A stretch of DNA of 42,766 nucleotides from an uncultured Bdellovibrionales bacterium (GCA_964530135.1 CAZGXN010000008.1:1-42766); one strand, 5' to 3'; shown: positions 3,868 through 40,790, numbered from the stretch's first letter. The notes: a model not told the origin generated them from the letters alone. Made by a program: numbers and translations.

Positions 3868-3950
3868 GCCGCGGTGGTGGAATGGTAGACACACGGGACT
3901 CAAAATCCCGCGATAGCAATATCATGAGAGTTCGAGTCTCTCCCGCGGCA
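3868..3950 (+). tRNA. tRNA-Leu (anticodon CAA); CCA end not encoded
   Basis: Acceptor stem GCCGCGG/CCGCGGC plus A73; D-arm with GGTAGAC; anticodon stem CGGGA/TCCCG with loop CTCAAAA; long variable arm; T-arm GAGAG-TTCGAGT-CTCTC; followed by CCC rather than CCA. Confidence 0.97.
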
Positions 3951-3958
3951 CCCCCAAC

Positions 3959-30976: not shown

Positions 30977-33955
30977 TCAATTTCTTTTCAGTGAAAAAGT
31001 AAATGAGCCGCCTTCGATATCGACCGTTTCCGAATATTCGGTATCGGTGAGTGCGCCTGGTTCAACCACTGTCGCGAGCACTTCGTTGGCGATGAGATTC
31101 TTCAGTTCTGTGTTCGCGAAAACCGCGTCCTTGCCGATAGAGCCGAGACTAATGCGATCCTCCACATTGAACCCGGCCTTCTTGCGGCCTTCTTGGATTG
31201 CACGAATGATTTCCCGCGCCTCCCCTTCGAGTTTCAGTTCGGGAGTGATTTCCCAATCAAAATCAACTTCTTCGCTATTACTTAACCCCACTTCCTTCAC
31301 ATTAAGCTCCTCATAAATAATCCAGCTCCATTCTGTTTTATTTATAGCCTCGTCAAAAAGACTGACATATTTTTGTGATAACAGAAGTTTTCTCAATGGT
31401 TGCCTCACTTTAACTCCTTTTTCAGCTCGCTTCTGGAGGCCGATTGTCACAACTTCACGAAGAAGTCTCATATTCTCCATTAACTTCTCATCAACAAACG
31501 ATTTATCCGCTACCGGGTAGTCAGCGAGATGGACGGATTCCTCACCCGTCAGATTGCGATAGATTGCCTCGGCGAGGAACGGCGTGAACGGCGCCATGAG
31601 TTTCGCGAGCGTGACGAGGACGGTGTAGAGCGTCTGATACGCCTGTTCCTTGTCGCTGTCGTCTTCACTCTTCCAGAAACGCTTCCGGCTGCGGCGGATG
31701 TACCAGTTGGAGAGGTTGTCGATGAAACTTTCGATTCGCTGGGTTGCAGAATAGACGTCGTATCTTTCCAACAAGGTATCAACTTCTCGTATCAGGACTT
31801 GCATTTCAGAAAGAATCCATTGATCGAGCAGATTGTTTGATGTTTGACACTTGGTGTTTGATGTTTGATTCGGCTCCCACCCATCGATCGACGCGTAGGT
31901 CGTGAAGAATGAATACGAATTCCAGAGCATACGGAATACACGGTTCTGTACATCGCGCATTCCCTTCAGATCGAATCGTTTCGGCAGCCCCGGCTGATTG
32001 ATGGCAAAGAAGAACCAGCGTAATTGATCCGCTCCGAACTGATCGAACATCTCGAACGGATCGATCACATTGCCTTTGGATTTGGACATCTTTTTCCCTT
32101 CACCATCGAGGACATGTCCGAGACAGATGACGTTCTTGAAGGCATTGCCCACCGGAACTTTCCCGGCCTGATTGAGCAGAGTTGCGATCGCGTGAAGCGT
32201 GTAGAACCAACCCCGCGTCTGATCAACGGCTTCGCAGATATAGTCCGCCGGAAAGTATTTCCCCGATTCGATATTCCGCTTGTCATCTTCGGTGACTGCA
32301 TTCGGATAATTGAACTGCGCCAAAGGCATCGCACCGGAATCGAACCAGACATCCATCACCTCGGGCGTTCGCCTCATGGTTCCACCGCACGCGCACGCAA
32401 AAGTCACATCATCGATGTAGGGCTTGTGCAAATCTTTCAGTCCTCCCAATTCATTGGCGGAGGAAAGAATTTTCCGGGCATCACATTGCTCACATTCCCA
32501 GATAGGGAGTGGCGTCCCCCAATACCGTTCGCGAGAAATCGCCCAGTCCTTCACACCGGAGAGCCACTCGCCGAAACGTCCTTCCTTGATATGTTCCGGT
32601 ATCCAGGAAACGTTTTTGTTATTCGCGACAAGAGCGTCCGAAAGCTCGCTCATCCGGATGAACCATGATGGCTTGGCAAAATAGATGAGTGGAGTATCAC
32701 AACGCCAACAGAACGGGTACTCATGCTCGTACTTCTCTTTTGAAAACAGGTGCCCAGCATGCGCGAGATGTTTGATCACCTCAACATCGGTCGCTTGCGG
32801 ATCTTCTTTTGGTTTGGCGAGTAAGGAGGCAAAGTCCGTCACCGCTTCATCAAATGTTCCATCCGGCTTCACGTGATGTACAATCGGAAGTTTTTCGGTC
32901 CGTGCCAACTCCATGTCGTCTTCTCCGAAAGCCGGTGCCTCGTGTGCGATGCCAGTGCCCACATCAGTCGTAACGAAATCCGCATGATAGATCTTCCATC
33001 CGTTCTCGCGATGCTTCAGCGACTCATCCTTGGCGTAGTAATCAAACAGCGGTTTGTAGGATTTTCCAACAAGCTCAGAACCATCAACCTTTCCAATTTG
33101 TTTGAATTCTTTTCCAGCAAAAACTTTCTGAATAAGATTATAAGCCACGATGTATAATGTTCCCTCGCTTTCAATCTTTGTATAAGCAATATTTTTATTC
33201 ACTGCCAAGGCCACATTGCCCGGCAATGTCCACGGTGTCGTGGTCCACGCGAGAACGAATGTCCCTGGTTCATCAACGAGCTCGAACTTCACTGTCACGG
33301 AGAGATCCTTGACTACCTTGTATCCCTGCGCCACCTCATGCGATGAGAGCGCGGTCCCACAGCGGTAGCAGTATGGCACGACTTTGTGTCCTTTATAGAC
33401 AAATGATTCTCCCGCCTCATTTTTCAGCTCAGCGATTTTTGCCAGCTGCCACCAGACTGACTCAATGTATTCATTCTCGTACGTTACGTATGGATGCTCC
33501 ATATCCACCCAGTACCCCATCCGAGTCGTCATCCTTTCCCAGAGATCGCGATATTCCCAGACCGATGCCTTGCACTGCCGATTGAACTCGATCACGCTCG
33601 CACGAGCGTCGCCCGACACTATGTTCTCGATATCCTGCTTGCTCCTGAGCCCCAGTGCCTTTTCAACTTGAAGCTCAACCGGGAGTCCATGGGTATCCCA
33701 GCCAGCTTTCCGCGCCACTCGATAGCCCTTCATCGTTTTGTAACGCGGGATGATGTCTTTGAAGGATCTAGCCAAAACGTGATGCAGCCCCGGTTTGCCA
33801 TTGGCGGTCGGCGGCCCCTCATAAAAGATGAATGACTTATCTTCGGGATTCTTCTTCACCGACTTTTCGAAAATCCCGTTCTCATTCCAGAACTTCAGTA
33901 TCTCCTCTTCGAGTTTCGGAAAATTCACTTTGGCGTCAACTTTTTTGAATGGCAT
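30977..33955 (-). CDS. ileS: Isoleucine--tRNA ligase, type 2
   Basis: YEGPPTANGKPGLHH, GWDTHGLPVE, WTTTPWTLPGN, GTGIAHEAPAFGEDD, CWRC, WAISRERYWGTPLP, EAVDQTRGWFY, KMSKSKGN; type-2 C-terminus (KVRQPL...EGEAREIIRAIQEGRKKAGF). Confidence 0.98.
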   Translation of the reverse strand: MPFKKVDAKVNFPKLEEEILKFWNENGIFEKSVKKNPEDKSFIFYEGPPTANGKPGLHHVLARSFKDIIPRYKTMKGYRVARKAGWDTHGLPVELQVEKALGLRSKQDIENIVSGDARASVIEFNRQCKASVWEYRDLWERMTTRMGYWVDMEHPYVTYENEYIESVWWQLAKIAELKNEAGESFVYKGHKVVPYCYRCGTALSSHEVAQGYKVVKDLSVTVKFELVDEPGTFVLAWTTTPWTLPGNVALAVNKNIAYTKIESEGTLYIVAYNLIQKVFAGKEFKQIGKVDGSELVGKSYKPLFDYYAKDESLKHRENGWKIYHADFVTTDVGTGIAHEAPAFGEDDMELARTEKLPIVHHVKPDGTFDEAVTDFASLLAKPKEDPQATDVEVIKHLAHAGHLFSKEKYEHEYPFCWRCDTPLIYFAKPSWFIRMSELSDALVANNKNVSWIPEHIKEGRFGEWLSGVKDWAISRERYWGTPLPIWECEQCDARKILSSANELGGLKDLHKPYIDDVTFACACGGTMRRTPEVMDVWFDSGAMPLAQFNYPNAVTEDDKRNIESGKYFPADYICEAVDQTRGWFYTLHAIATLLNQAGKVPVGNAFKNVICLGHVLDGEGKKMSKSKGNVIDPFEMFDQFGADQLRWFFFAINQPGLPKRFDLKGMRDVQNRVFRMLWNSYSFFTTYASIDGWEPNQTSNTKCQTSNNLLDQWILSEMQVLIREVDTLLERYDVYSATQRIESFIDNLSNWYIRRSRKRFWKSEDDSDKEQAYQTLYTVLVTLAKLMAPFTPFLAEAIYRNLTGEESVHLADYPVADKSFVDEKLMENMRLLREVVTIGLQKRAEKGVKVRQPLRKLLLSQKYVSLFDEAINKTEWSWIIYEELNVKEVGLSNSEEVDFDWEITPELKLEGEAREIIRAIQEGRKKAGFNVEDRISLGSIGKDAVFANTELKNLIANEVLATVVEPGALTDTEYSETVDIEGGSFTFSLKRN
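31834..31868 (-). repeat. 7-mer tandem repeat (5 units) translated in frame in ileS
   Basis: Coding strand TCAAACA TCAAACA CCAAGTG TCAAACA TCAAACA, encoding QTSNTKCQTSN. Confidence 0.85.
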
Positions 33956-33962
33956 ATAGGTT

Positions 33963-34200
33963 TAGAGAAAAAAGAAAATCCTTAACACGCTTTGTGCTAA
34001 GGACGATTCAGAAATCGTGGTACCACCTCGCTTCGTTCACTCCTCAGTGAACCTTCATTATGGGACTAACGGGCCCCGCCCACGACGCTTCGCGTGAGCG
34101 ATGCGGGCAGGCGACCGTTGGGTTCTACACACCGTTCCGAAGCCTCTCGGCGCAGGACGGTTTCTTCCCATGGCTCCAGGATGATAGTCCCTTCAATGCC
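33963..34200 (-). ncRNA. T-box riboswitch (Ile, AUC specifier) in the ileS leader; ultrashort Stem I plus transcriptional terminator
   Basis: Stem I GGCAUUGAAGGGACU-AUC-AUCCUGGAGCC; Stem II UGGG-AAGAA...GUAGAA-CCCA; F-box CCGUUA; Stem III GUUCACU/AGUGAAC; T-box GAGG-UGGUACC-ACGAUU/AAUCGU-CCUU; terminator UCCUUAGCAC/GUGUUAAGGA followed by a U-tract. Confidence 0.93.
34074..34112 (-). repeat. GC-rich palindromic element inserted in T-box Stem IIA/B
   Basis: GCCTGCCCGC-ATCGCTCACGCGAAGCGTC-GTGGGCGGGG; arms resemble 40349-40387. Confidence 0.55.
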
Positions 34201-34216
34201 AATCGATTGTGGCCCC

Positions 34217-34245
34217 AGACTATCACGAAAAAGTGGCCAGAGCAA
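34217..34245 (-). promoter_or_regulatory. Promoter of the T-box-ileS transcript
   Basis: TTGCTC-17 nt-TAGTCT with an extended -10 TG, just upstream of Stem I. Confidence 0.65.
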
Positions 34246-37572: not shown

Positions 37573-37607
37573 AAAAAGAAAACAGCGCTCCCTTGTAAAG
37601 GAAGCGC
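37573..37607 (-). terminator. Intrinsic terminator of the two-gene secreted cassette
   Basis: Minus strand GCGCTTCC-TTTACAA-GGGAGCGC followed by TGTTTTCTTTTT. Confidence 0.8.
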
Positions 37608-37627
37608 CGATAAGGACTCGGAACCGG

Positions 37628-38686
37628 TCACACAGGTACAGGTGGCGGGAAATTGACGACGCTGGCTTCGCCCTCTCTAACCGTAACTGTCTGGGCACCA
37701 TAGGCGTCGTCTCGAGCGTACGCGCGGATCACATATGTCCCCGCGCGGACACCGGTTAGCCGATACACGCCCCGCGCATCCGTTGTCGTATTTGCGATTG
37801 GTGCCTGTGCAAGATTCTGGTACAAACTGACAGTCCACCCCGAGAGAACGCCACCAAATCCATCGCCCACCATTCCCTCGATCGTTCCGCCAGTCACCGG
37901 AATCGGCAAGAGCGCGAGAATGGCGTTGACGATTCGTGTCCGACTGTTCGTACCGGAGAGGTATGACTCCTTGAAGCCGTGGCATCGGTACTCGTCGCCA
38001 CACGGTTCGGTGTTGGCCGCGTTGGCTGGCAGGGCGAGCAGGAAGTACTTGCGTGCAAAGCCGTCTTCGGTGAGTGTGGTGTACGGGCCACCATCAGCTA
38101 CGCTATCAGCCGGTGTCGCCACTGCCACCAGGCGTGTTTTGCCACGCTCGGTAGCAGACAATGCCAACCATTCCTGATTCGCATAGAAACTGCCCTGCGA
38201 GTGCGGCACCAGGATCACCCGCCGGCCTTGTGCCAAATGTTCGCGGTACTTGACCAAATGCTCAGCGACTTGATCACCGAGGACATAGAGCGCCGCTTCG
38301 CGCGCCACTTTCCGATAGAGGTCATCTGCCAGGAGGTTGAATCCTGGTAGCTGACTCATCGCAAGCGCTCGCAAGTAGACCTTCCAGAAAAGCGAGGTAC
38401 TCCGATCGAGCTCCTCGCTCTTTTGCAGGCCGGCTTCGATGAAGTCGAGTTTCAAGAGCTCATCCGTGTTGTAGGCGTAGTCGAAGCTGAGACAGTCCTT
38501 GAGATTGTCGGGTGTTTTCGCAAGGACTTCTTTTGCTAATTTTTCTTTTGAATTAATAGCATTGAACTCCTCCGTATCCACCCCATTGATGAAGAAGATC
38601 GTGGTCTTTTCCGTGGGACAGACAGCCCAGGAATACGCTGGCAGCATAAGTGCCAGGACGAGCATCAGAACTTTCCAGTCACGCAT
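37628..38686 (-). CDS. Secreted alpha/beta-hydrolase (lipase/cutinase-like) with a C-terminal carboxypeptidase-regulatory-like beta domain
   Basis: AAGGAGAG before MRDWKVLMLVLALMLPAYSWA (signal peptide); TIFFINGV; nucleophile elbow VPHSQG; CHGF; C-terminal GTIEGMV...TTTDARGVYRLTGVRAGTYVIRA. Confidence 0.75.
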   Translation of the reverse strand: MRDWKVLMLVLALMLPAYSWAVCPTEKTTIFFINGVDTEEFNAINSKEKLAKEVLAKTPDNLKDCLSFDYAYNTDELLKLDFIEAGLQKSEELDRSTSLFWKVYLRALAMSQLPGFNLLADDLYRKVAREAALYVLGDQVAEHLVKYREHLAQGRRVILVPHSQGSFYANQEWLALSATERGKTRLVAVATPADSVADGGPYTTLTEDGFARKYFLLALPANAANTEPCGDEYRCHGFKESYLSGTNSRTRIVNAILALLPIPVTGGTIEGMVGDGFGGVLSGWTVSLYQNLAQAPIANTTTDARGVYRLTGVRAGTYVIRAYARDDAYGAQTVTVREGEASVVNFPPPVPV

Positions 38687-38708
38687 GTTTCTCTCCTTGG
38701 AAAAGTAA

Positions 38709-39602
38709 TTAGTTGGGCAGGGAGTCAGGATTGAAGGTACAGGCGACTTTCTGCCGGTTAAGTCGTTGACTAGCAGGACCGCTATCCGAGACATAACCAC
38801 CCATGTGAGCATTCGCCTTGCGATAAGCCCGGCTGCGCTCCTTGGTGTTGAGGAAACTGGCAATCAATTCCGCGCCTGCCTTGTCGCTCGCATCGAGGTC
38901 ATCATTAAAGACATGGTTGAGACAGTCGATAGCTGCTTCCATGACTTTTCCGCCATTACTCCTCGTCTTCGCCTTGTCCTGATGATCGCGCACAAAAGCA
39001 TGAAGCATTCGTGCATTTTGCATCAAGGCCTCGCGCTTCTTGGCCGATTCGGGATAACCAAAAACGATGAAGCGTTCGATATCGTCACGGACACCGTTGT
39101 TGTTGGTGTCGATCCCGAGCAGGTCTTGCTTGCCCGCTTCTCCTGGATCACCCGGCAAGGGAATGGTTGAGAAAGTGAGCTCCACCGGAAAATGTGGCAT
39201 GAATTCCTCTTTCGTGATTCCGTCGGACAGGCGCCGGAGCAGCACCAACTCGCCGCGTTTCACACTCAGTGGTGCGTCTGGTGGAGCAGTCACACGCACA
39301 GTGACACCCACCGTCTCACCAGCCTGGATTGCGTTCCGAAATCCCGGATCGTTCACGGTGATATAGGGGGTGATCTCGCCGCGCGCCTCGACGATGAGAT
39401 GTGGGGTTTCCGAAAGCGGCTTTGGGCCGACATTCCTGAGTGCAACCGTGTGCGAAGTAGTCGCACCTGGTGCGAGACTTTCCGGTGCGAGGCGTGCAGG
39501 CACCCACGCGATGTGTGGCGTAGCGGCCCACGTGACGACCGTTACGAGAGATAAAACGGCTCCCAAGAGGAGCAGTCTCCAACGGTGTTGCTTCGTGAAC
39601 AT
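38709..39602 (-). CDS. Secreted hypothetical protein with an Ig-like domain and a DxNxNG Ca-binding-like loop
   Basis: Signal peptide MFTKQHRWRLLLLGAVLSLVTVVTWA; beta-rich N-terminal half; LLGIDTNNNGVRDDIERFI followed by a helical domain; GGAG 8 nt before the ATG at 39602. Confidence 0.75.
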   Translation of the reverse strand: MFTKQHRWRLLLLGAVLSLVTVVTWAATPHIAWVPARLAPESLAPGATTSHTVALRNVGPKPLSETPHLIVEARGEITPYITVNDPGFRNAIQAGETVGVTVRVTAPPDAPLSVKRGELVLLRRLSDGITKEEFMPHFPVELTFSTIPLPGDPGEAGKQDLLGIDTNNNGVRDDIERFIVFGYPESAKKREALMQNARMLHAFVRDHQDKAKTRSNGGKVMEAAIDCLNHVFNDDLDASDKAGAELIASFLNTKERSRAYRKANAHMGGYVSDSGPASQRLNRQKVACTFNPDSLPN

Positions 39603-40348: not shown

Positions 40349-40387
40349 GCCGCCCGAAACCCTTTGCAAAAAGCGTTGCGGGCGGGG
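40349..40387 (+). repeat. GC-rich palindromic element abutting the tmRNA 5' end
   Basis: GCCGCCCG-AAACCCTTTGCAAAA-AGCGTTGCGGGCGGGG; related to 34074-34112. Confidence 0.5.
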
Positions 40388-40790
40388 GTTGTCTAGACTC
40401 GACAGGGCGTACTTTTAAAATAGGCAAGCCGACCTTGGGCATATGGTCGTAAATACTATTCCCACGATGATAAATGCAAACTTCATCACCAAAGCAAAGA
40501 ACGCAATCGCGCAAGCATTTGCTCCGTCTTTCGCTCCTGCTCTCGCCTAAATTAGTGCGTTGAGCCATCGGACTCTTGATTCTCAATAGGGAAGCTCCGG
40601 TGCCATAACCATTGAGACGATGCGAGGACATTTCCTTTTCTTTCCACCTCAAATTGTATTGCCAAAGAAAAGCTGATTGAGGGATTTTGTGTGTTTTCTA
40701 CCCGCTGTCTGTATACAAAGCACACTACGCTTGTAGACTATTTTAGATAATCGTTACTGGACATGGGTGCAATTCCCATCAACTCCACCA
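40385..40790 (+). ncRNA. ssrA: tmRNA (ssrA)
   Basis: 5' GGGGTTG...GACTCGAC; 3' T-arm ATGGG-TGCAATT-CCCAT plus CAACTCC-A-CCA; G3:U wobble; tag ORF 40476-40550 ANFITKAKNAIAQAFAPSFAPALA*; directly after smpB. Confidence 0.96.

Follow-up and report, generated by a model that had tools for sequence, protein, structure and literature searches.

Structures that we take to represent Class III ileS T-boxes are PDB 6UFM (Nocardia farcinica) and PDB 6UFG (Mycobacterium tuberculosis), and the actinobacterial ileS T-boxes with a short Stem I are reportedly the subject of a study by Sherwood, Grundy and Henkin from 2015.

A Class III T-box is defined by a short Stem I without an elbow platform and by a specifier placed in a penta- or hexanucleotide apical loop; Classes III and IV are said to “mostly regulate translation initiation” (PMC10482949). 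Reviews tie the short Stem I to translational control and regard it as peculiar to actinobacteria and to Ile (PMC7583486, PMC10482949, PMC9177973), and the short-stem model of TBDB was searched in Actinobacteria only. Transcriptional T-boxes have been argued to need an elbow-binding platform for fast co-transcriptional capture of the tRNA (PMC7583486). Gene regulation in Patescibacteria was called virtually unknown in a 2024 perspective (PMC11665869). No report linking T-boxes with Patescibacteria, CPR, Parcubacteria or Saccharibacteria was found in our literature search, and rare actinobacterial exceptions, short-stem leaders bearing a terminator, may be on record.

The leader described here resembles the actinobacterial Class III ileS T-boxes in its 29-nt K-turn Stem I, in the AUC-purine sequence within a 6-nt apical loop, in the absence of an elbow platform, in the S-turn strands GAAGAA and AGUAGAA, in Stem IIA/B, Stem III and the UGGU bulge, and in its target, ileS. 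Unlike them, it ends in a hairpin and U-tract terminator and not in a Shine-Dalgarno (SD) sequestrator, resides in a member of the Patescibacteria, belongs to an architecture that is not confined to Ile in the CPR, and carries an insert of 41 nt in the IIA loop. With Class I T-boxes (Bacillus subtilis tyrS type, RF00230) it shares the mutually exclusive antiterminator and terminator, the T-box sequence, the Stem II S-turn, Stem IIA/B with the F-box and Stem III, as well as an aminoacyl-tRNA synthetase gene under transcription attenuation (predicted for this leader). However, it has no long Stem I, AG bulge, distal loop or interdigitated T-loop platform, and its specifier lies in the apical loop, whereas that of Class I lies in an internal loop. 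The nearest IleRS proteins outside the CPR (43–49% identical) are those of Dehalococcoidia and Rubrobacterales, whose ileS T-boxes have a long Stem I and share with the present leader the AUC specifier, the terminator platform and the gene family.

The ileS locus and the sensor half of its leader

The window, that is, the whole stretch of 42,766 nucleotides analysed, corresponds to contig C8 of the genome, which amounts to 888 kb and is 99.4% complete. The gene behind the leader was identified as ileS, with a score of 926 bits against NCBIfam TIGR00392 (cut-off 621). The IleRS proteins closest to its product come from Candidatus Moraniibacteriota MAGs (61–72% identity), and for this reason the host is assigned to the Patescibacteria/CPR, as the first-pass annotation had proposed. 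The ORF of 992 aa starts with the ATG at 33955 and is preceded on the minus strand by a 298-nt intergenic stretch containing a complete T-box leader, from 34200 to 33968 (Table 1).

Table 1. Positions of the leader elements and of other features in the window
Feature	Position	Strand	Basis or remark
Stem I, ultrashort, 29 nt (GGC-AUUGAA-GGGA-CUAUCA-UCCU-GGAGCC)	34172..34200	-	sequence; Rfam alignment; covariation
Specifier AUC (Ile) in apical loop, then conserved purine A34182	34183..34185	-	invariant; cognate to tRNA-Ile(GAU)
Stem II with S-turn strands GAAGAA (34167-34162) and GUGUAGAA (34130-34123)	34119..34170	-	covariation; conservation
Stem IIA/B (IIA ACGG:CCGU; possible IIB GGGGC:GUCCC)	34062..34118	-	IIA pairing; IIB partly conserved
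F-box CCGUUA, within CCCGUUAG (34073-34066)	34072-34067	-	Stem IIA strand
Hairpin insert in IIA loop, 41 nt, G+C-rich	34074..34114	-	folds on its own
Stem III hairpin GUUCACU-GAGG-AGUGAAC	34035..34052	-	relatives have a hairpin of other sequence in the same place
Antiterminator (GAGG / bulge UGGUACC / ACGAU-loop-AUCGU / CCUU)	33999..34029	-	Rfam alignment; covariation; -4.0 kcal/mol
T-box sequence AGGUGGUACCACG	34016..34028	-	UGGU at 34025-34022, complementary to ACCA 3' end of tRNA-Ile
Intrinsic terminator, 11-bp hairpin GUCCUUAGCAC-AAAGC-GUGUUAAGGAU	33978..34004	-	-14.1 kcal/mol; covariation
U-tract UUUUCUUUUUU, 11 nt	33968..33978	-	directly 3' of terminator hairpin
Promoter-like motif: TTGCTC (34245-34240), 17-nt spacer, extended -10 TGaTAGTCT (34225-34217)	34217..34245	-	putative
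ileS, isoleucine-tRNA ligase, 992 aa	30977..33955	-	Pfam tRNA-synt_1 and Anticodon_1; NCBIfam TIGR00392
Gene-end terminator, 12 bp, 7 G-C, then UUUUCUUUUU	37583-37609	-	strongest terminator-like site in 20 kb
Gene 5' of the leader, 227 aa	34254-34937	-	weak Pfam match to alternative oxidase (AOX; E 1.3e-7, 32 bits)
tmRNA gene	40385-40790	+	RF00023, 104.8 bits
tRNA-Leu(CAA)	3868-3952	+	

The window also encodes a tmRNA and a tRNA-Leu. The neighbour on the 5' side of the leader resembles an AOX-like di-iron oxidase, a protein unexpected for a CPR genome. Elsewhere in the assembly, contigs C15 and C16 (4.5 and 4.3 kb) have a G+C content of 31%, compared with about 49% for the rest, and C16 carries a second tRNA-Tyr(GTA); these two contigs may represent contamination or a mobile element.

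All the T-box elements named in the first-pass annotation could be located on the minus strand, none more than a few bases from the position it gave, among them a Stem I of about 29 nt with AUC in its terminal loop. Stem I comprises a C-stem (GGC:GCC), a K-turn with an AUU bulge and tandem G.A pairs, an NC-stem (GGGA:UCCU) and the apical loop CUAUCA. The specifier and the purine that follows it (AUC-A) thus lie in a hexanucleotide loop on a short stem without an elbow platform, as in Class III, and the earlier labels of a “class II” sensor on a “class I” platform differ from the four-class scheme, in which this sensor is Class III (PMC10482949). The S-turn and Stem IIA/B expected of that class are likewise present, with GAAGAA and GUAGAA strands and the F-box, and both the base of Stem II and IIA covary. 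Conservation of the S-turn strands extends across CPR and actinobacterial leaders, and the distal extension of Stem II ends in a GAGA loop.

Of the IIA/B pseudoknot with CCGUUA that had been proposed, the F-box and the IIA pairing were borne out, while the IIB pairing is plausible and conserved in part only among the aligned leaders. The 41-nt hairpin within the IIA loop, which had gone unmentioned, is missing from all aligned relatives; the 3' end of the loop (GGGGC) is still able to pair with GUCCC to form IIB. The insert was considered as a repeat or mobile element and rejected as such, being single-copy in the genome.

The specifier, the gene and the tRNA of the host agree. A tRNA-Ile(GAU) complementary to AUC is encoded on contig C2 and carries the discriminator A73, which is complementary to the U of UGGU, so that the bulge matches the A73-CCA end of this tRNA as the earlier reading had supposed.

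In an Rfam scan at the gathering threshold no T-box was found in the window. Comparison with RF00230, which the first-pass annotation had recommended, gave a divided result: searched against the leader alone, the model aligned from end to end, but at 37.8 bits (E 5.4e-7), far below the gathering cut-off of 93. This alignment bridges 76 model positions of Stem I with 6 nt and leaves the T-box core intact; the long Stem I with AG bulge and distal loop platform is absent, Stem I amounting to 29 nt in total. Standard annotation misses the leader because of this score. Our own covariance model, R1 (97 positions, 16 pairs, built from 10 CPR decoding modules), scores the leader at 61.6 bits (E 4e-12). 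RF00230 and R1 agree on a single T-box in the genome, no second one being detected by either in the 888 kb searched.

The expression platform

The 5' arm of the terminator overlaps the 3' strand of the antiterminator, and GUCCUU is common to both folds, which are therefore mutually exclusive, as the first-pass annotation had claimed. With predicted energies of -4.0 kcal/mol for the antiterminator and -14.1 kcal/mol for the terminator, the pair fits a default-off switch, typical of T-boxes; the corresponding TBDB means are -7.4 and -19.5 kcal/mol. Only 4 of the pairs in the terminator stem are G-C, and a single C breaks the U-tract. Two details of the earlier description needed correction: the terminator counts 11 pairs (10 plus a G.U) in place of 10, and the uninterrupted U-run ends 12 nt before the ATG, or 8 nt if the trailing CUCU is counted, and not 7 nt.

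Among 41 genomes belonging to the genus, family or order of the host, 31 contain sub-threshold matches to RF00230, and none has a match that passes the cut-off. Fourteen of these matches, together with five leaders from named MAGs, all directly 5' of ileS, made up a set of 19 CPR ileS leaders, which follow the same plan as the window leader. AUC is invariant in 10/10 close ileS leaders of a 10-leader alignment, in which Stem I and the base of Stem II covary (GGGA:UCCU, GGGG:CCCC, GGAG:CUCC and GAGG:CCUC); the basal helix of Stem II shows UA/CG and GC/AU exchanges. From the T-box core to the U-tract, the 19 leaders retain the antiterminator in 97.1% of cells, with 4 compensatory pairs, and the terminator in 93.7% of cells, with compensatory changes in 6 of its 11 pairs. 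In a shuffle test of both helices 0/500 reached the observed covariation score, and slid controls were paired at about 45%. Moreover, the distal terminator helix, which has no role in the antiterminator, covaries too. The survey of CPR ileS leaders that had been suggested at the outset thus gave a clear outcome, a hairpin with a long U-tract in all 19, consistent with an intrinsic terminator that consists of a stable hairpin and an immediate U-tract and is under selection.

Several CPR ileS leaders are larger than this plan, although compact leaders of about 180 nt are common. An extra hairpin was seen at one of three sites (L019, L023, L024, L005, L015, L021; L025, L035; L037): it separates the specifier hairpin from the 3' strand of the K-turn, giving a Y-shaped Stem I, or lies between Stem I and Stem II, or, in L037, sits inside the specifier loop, with AUC placed after it. 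The occurrence of extra hairpins at three sites marks the short Stem I as a hotspot of lineage-specific insertions. In two genus-level relatives (L003 and L024) a small ORF of about 90 aa, hydrophobic-looking, lies between the T-box terminator and ileS, so that the leader there controls a two-gene unit.

The hairpin of the window leader could alternatively act on translation, alone or in addition to transcription, as a sequestrator that hides an AAGGA ribosome-binding element, in the manner of the actinobacterial ileS T-boxes. AAGGA does lie in the 3' arm of the hairpin; it ends, however, 23 nt 5' of the ATG, too distant for an SD, and no SD was found within 20 nt of the ATG. Nor was SD enrichment detected genome-wide, SD-like 4-mers being present ahead of 12% of the 457 long ORFs examined and in 15% of random 18-mers, a rough estimate in which start codons were picked crudely. 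The 16S tail GGATCACCTCC was not found in the assembly. Furthermore, the host uses the same style of hairpin and U-tract at the end of an ordinary gene, which counts in favour of attenuation. Together, the lack of a nearby SD, the lack of SD enrichment and the shared terminator style make translational control unlikely in the window.

This gene-end terminator starts 19 nt past the stop codon of a gene located at 37628-38863, and only about 68 nt separate it from the ATG of argS. It was considered as a second attenuator, for argS, and rejected because of its position just past the upstream gene. The 20-kb scan for promoters and terminators returned 23 terminator-like sites compared with 19 in shuffles and, as this is no overall enrichment, was used only for individual strong sites. 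The promoter-like motif was not called in the consensus promoter scan. Relatives of the genus and family have the pattern TTGnnn-17-TGnTAnnnT conserved in the corresponding position 5' of Stem I, and a putative transcription start would lie near CACAAU, a few nucleotides before Stem I.

Short Stem I leaders in the CPR and in other phyla

R1 gave matches in 115 of 401 evenly sampled Patescibacteria genomes, representing 98 of 320 genera. When 100 of the matches were aligned to the model, 97.1% of cells were paired and all 16 pairs showed compensatory changes (451 cells), with slid controls at about 40%; the alignment is fitted to R1, and the effect far exceeds that bias. The Stem I helices are 95–99% paired across the 100 sequences, with compensatory changes at every pair, and the IIA pairs are kept in 96% of cells. 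Of 109 matches retrieved, 107 have a T-box core downstream and 94 a hairpin with U-tract, as judged by a simple finder.

The triplet in the apical loop, the base of the UGGN bulge and the synthetase encoded downstream, named by NCBIfam, are concordant across the CPR. About 45 leaders combine AUC and UGGU with IleRS and about 23 combine GUC and UGGU with ValRS; GAC with UGGC precedes AspRS, mostly of the non-discriminating type, AAC with mostly UGGC also precedes AspRS, and a single leader joins CGC and UGGU to ArgRS. One further short-stem leader lies 5' of a class I LysRS. No AUC-ValRS or GUC-IleRS crosses were found among the CPR leaders surveyed. This agreement indicates that the short Stem I sensor is a general CPR device and not a peculiarity of ileS. 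The specificity for ileS claimed by the first-pass annotation accordingly stands for this genome, with its one T-box, and falls for the phylum, where valS, aspS and argS share the architecture.

Six leaders with an AAC (Asn) specifier (L121, L133, L134, L146, L158 and L162) precede AspRS genes that NCBIfam names aspartate-tRNA(Asn) ligase or aspS. Such an arrangement is expected if a non-discriminating AspRS charges tRNA-Asn where AsnRS is absent.

One strict classifier was applied to the short-stem leaders of the CPR and the Actinomycetota. In the CPR 80 leaders had a terminator and 12 did not, whereas among the 20 leaders from 300 Actinomycetota genomes none had a terminator and all were SD-sequestering, with the SD-bearing 3' arm adjoining the start codon in 20/20; terminators in the Actinomycetota sample accompanied only a long Stem I. 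The hybrid nature proposed for the leader, a short-stem sensor on a transcriptional platform, is thereby supported (80/92 CPR leaders with a terminator versus 0/20). R1, although built from CPR sequences only, scores the 20 actinobacterial ileS leaders at 38–71 bits, which places the decoding modules in one family. No short-stem leaders, with or without terminator, were found in 552 genomes of Bacillota (301) and Chloroflexota (251), where R1 matches were weak, at 42 bits or less. These matches were rejected as short-stem leaders, all of them being partial and situated inside canonical leaders with a long Stem I.

Inspection of the 12 CPR leaders classed as lacking a terminator revealed several weak terminators, two parsing mis-hits inside ORFs and three that look translational. 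The latter (L168, L192 and L198, a GC-rich CPR family) have before ileS an alternative hairpin with GAGG 7–8 nt before the AUG and no U-tract, a platform that looks translational, like the actinobacterial type, within the CPR. Terminators are dominant and this family exists beside them, so the CPR hold both platforms.

For the window leader, the translational reading can draw on this SD-bearing family and on the uniformly translational use of the sensor in Actinomycetota. Against it stand the long U-tract that follows the hairpin in every one of the 19 relatives and the distance from U-tract to start codon, which is unconserved (median 26 nt, 10th–90th percentile 7–109, maximum 399). Such variation, from under 10 to about 400 nt and in two cases with a small ORF between, argues against masking of a ribosome site. 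Taken together with the absence of a usable SD, we consider control of this ileS gene at the level of translation highly improbable.

The same survey bears on whether the leader is a decayed relic, a former T-box that no longer senses tRNA and whose terminator is constitutive or dead. Such decay would be in keeping with the low Rfam score, the IIA-loop insertion and a host whose genome is reduced. All functional elements are intact, however, their helices are maintained by compensatory changes across about 100 genomes, specifier, UGGN and the identity of the gene change in concert from one amino acid to another, and AUC is invariant in ileS leaders; degeneration is hardly credible in the face of this.

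Proposed mechanism and significance

Very probably, the leader is a T-box riboswitch that responds to tRNA-Ile and controls ileS by attenuating its transcription. In the proposed mechanism, transcription would begin a few nucleotides 5' of Stem I, and the 29-nt stem would then offer the AUC of its apical loop to the GAU anticodon of tRNA-Ile, without contact to the tRNA elbow. If the tRNA is uncharged, its ACCA-3' end would pair with the UGGU bulge and stabilise the weak antiterminator (-4 kcal/mol), allowing readthrough into ileS. With a charged tRNA, or with none, the stronger terminator (-14 kcal/mol) with its U-tract would form, and transcription would stop about 12 nt before the ATG. The binding of tRNA, the discrimination of its charge and termination itself are predicted from the sequence.

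Several considerations weigh against attenuation: the Rfam score far below the cut-off, the few G-C pairs of the terminator stem, the interruption of its U-tract and the insert in the IIA loop, which might disturb the pseudoknot on which Class III sensors depend. Given the elbow platform ascribed to transcriptional T-boxes (PMC7583486), an attenuator with a short Stem I may also need compensations that are not apparent in the sequence. This last point leads to a variant of the attenuation model in which the short sensor does not suffice alone and a K-turn-binding protein, pausing of RNA polymerase or insertions acting as a timer replace the elbow contact. The elbow platform is held to speed tRNA capture before the polymerase reaches the terminator (PMC7583486), and in CPR leaders Stem I, Stem II, Stem III and the IIA loop are frequently interrupted by variable insertions, of which the 41-nt hairpin in the window is an instance. 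These insertions are, however, unconserved in position and sequence, many leaders remain compact (about 180 nt), and no candidate partner was identified. Moreover, tRNA is bound about 6-fold more tightly by Class III sensors, which make no elbow contact, than by sensors with a long Stem I (PMC10482949). A requirement for such a helper therefore seems unlikely to us. The tighter binding of tRNA by Class III sensors may be enough for the kinetic demands of co-transcriptional sensing, and pausing, a protein partner or the frequent lineage insertions could contribute. Attenuation by the short sensor remains our preferred reading.

Beyond the window, it is rather probable that the CPR use the elbow-independent short Stem I as a general T-box design, driving intrinsic terminators in about 30% of the sampled genomes and placed before ileS, valS, aspS (with Asp or Asn specifiers), argS and possibly class I lysS.

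The arrangement is a known sensor combined with a known platform contrary to the rule of the field, for several amino acids and in a phylum whose T-boxes are unannotated. Both parts of that rule, that transcriptional T-boxes need a long Stem I with an elbow-binding platform and that a short Stem I means translational, Ile-specific control in Actinobacteria, are broken by the window leader and about a hundred relatives. They make up a large set of T-boxes left unannotated because they score under the Rfam cut-off, and they reveal a native regulatory RNA system in Patescibacteria. The CPR leaders provide a natural test of whether elbow contact is needed in co-transcriptional sensing, and supply natural terminator switches that respond to tRNA, are compact (roughly 180 nt) and cover several amino acids. 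If these leaders do attenuate transcription, contact with the elbow would be dispensable for co-transcriptional sensing of tRNA and the Class III sensor would be no Ile-specific actinobacterial oddity. Evolution would then have recombined the sensor and platform modules of T-boxes, a point relevant to the question of which of the T-box classes arose first.
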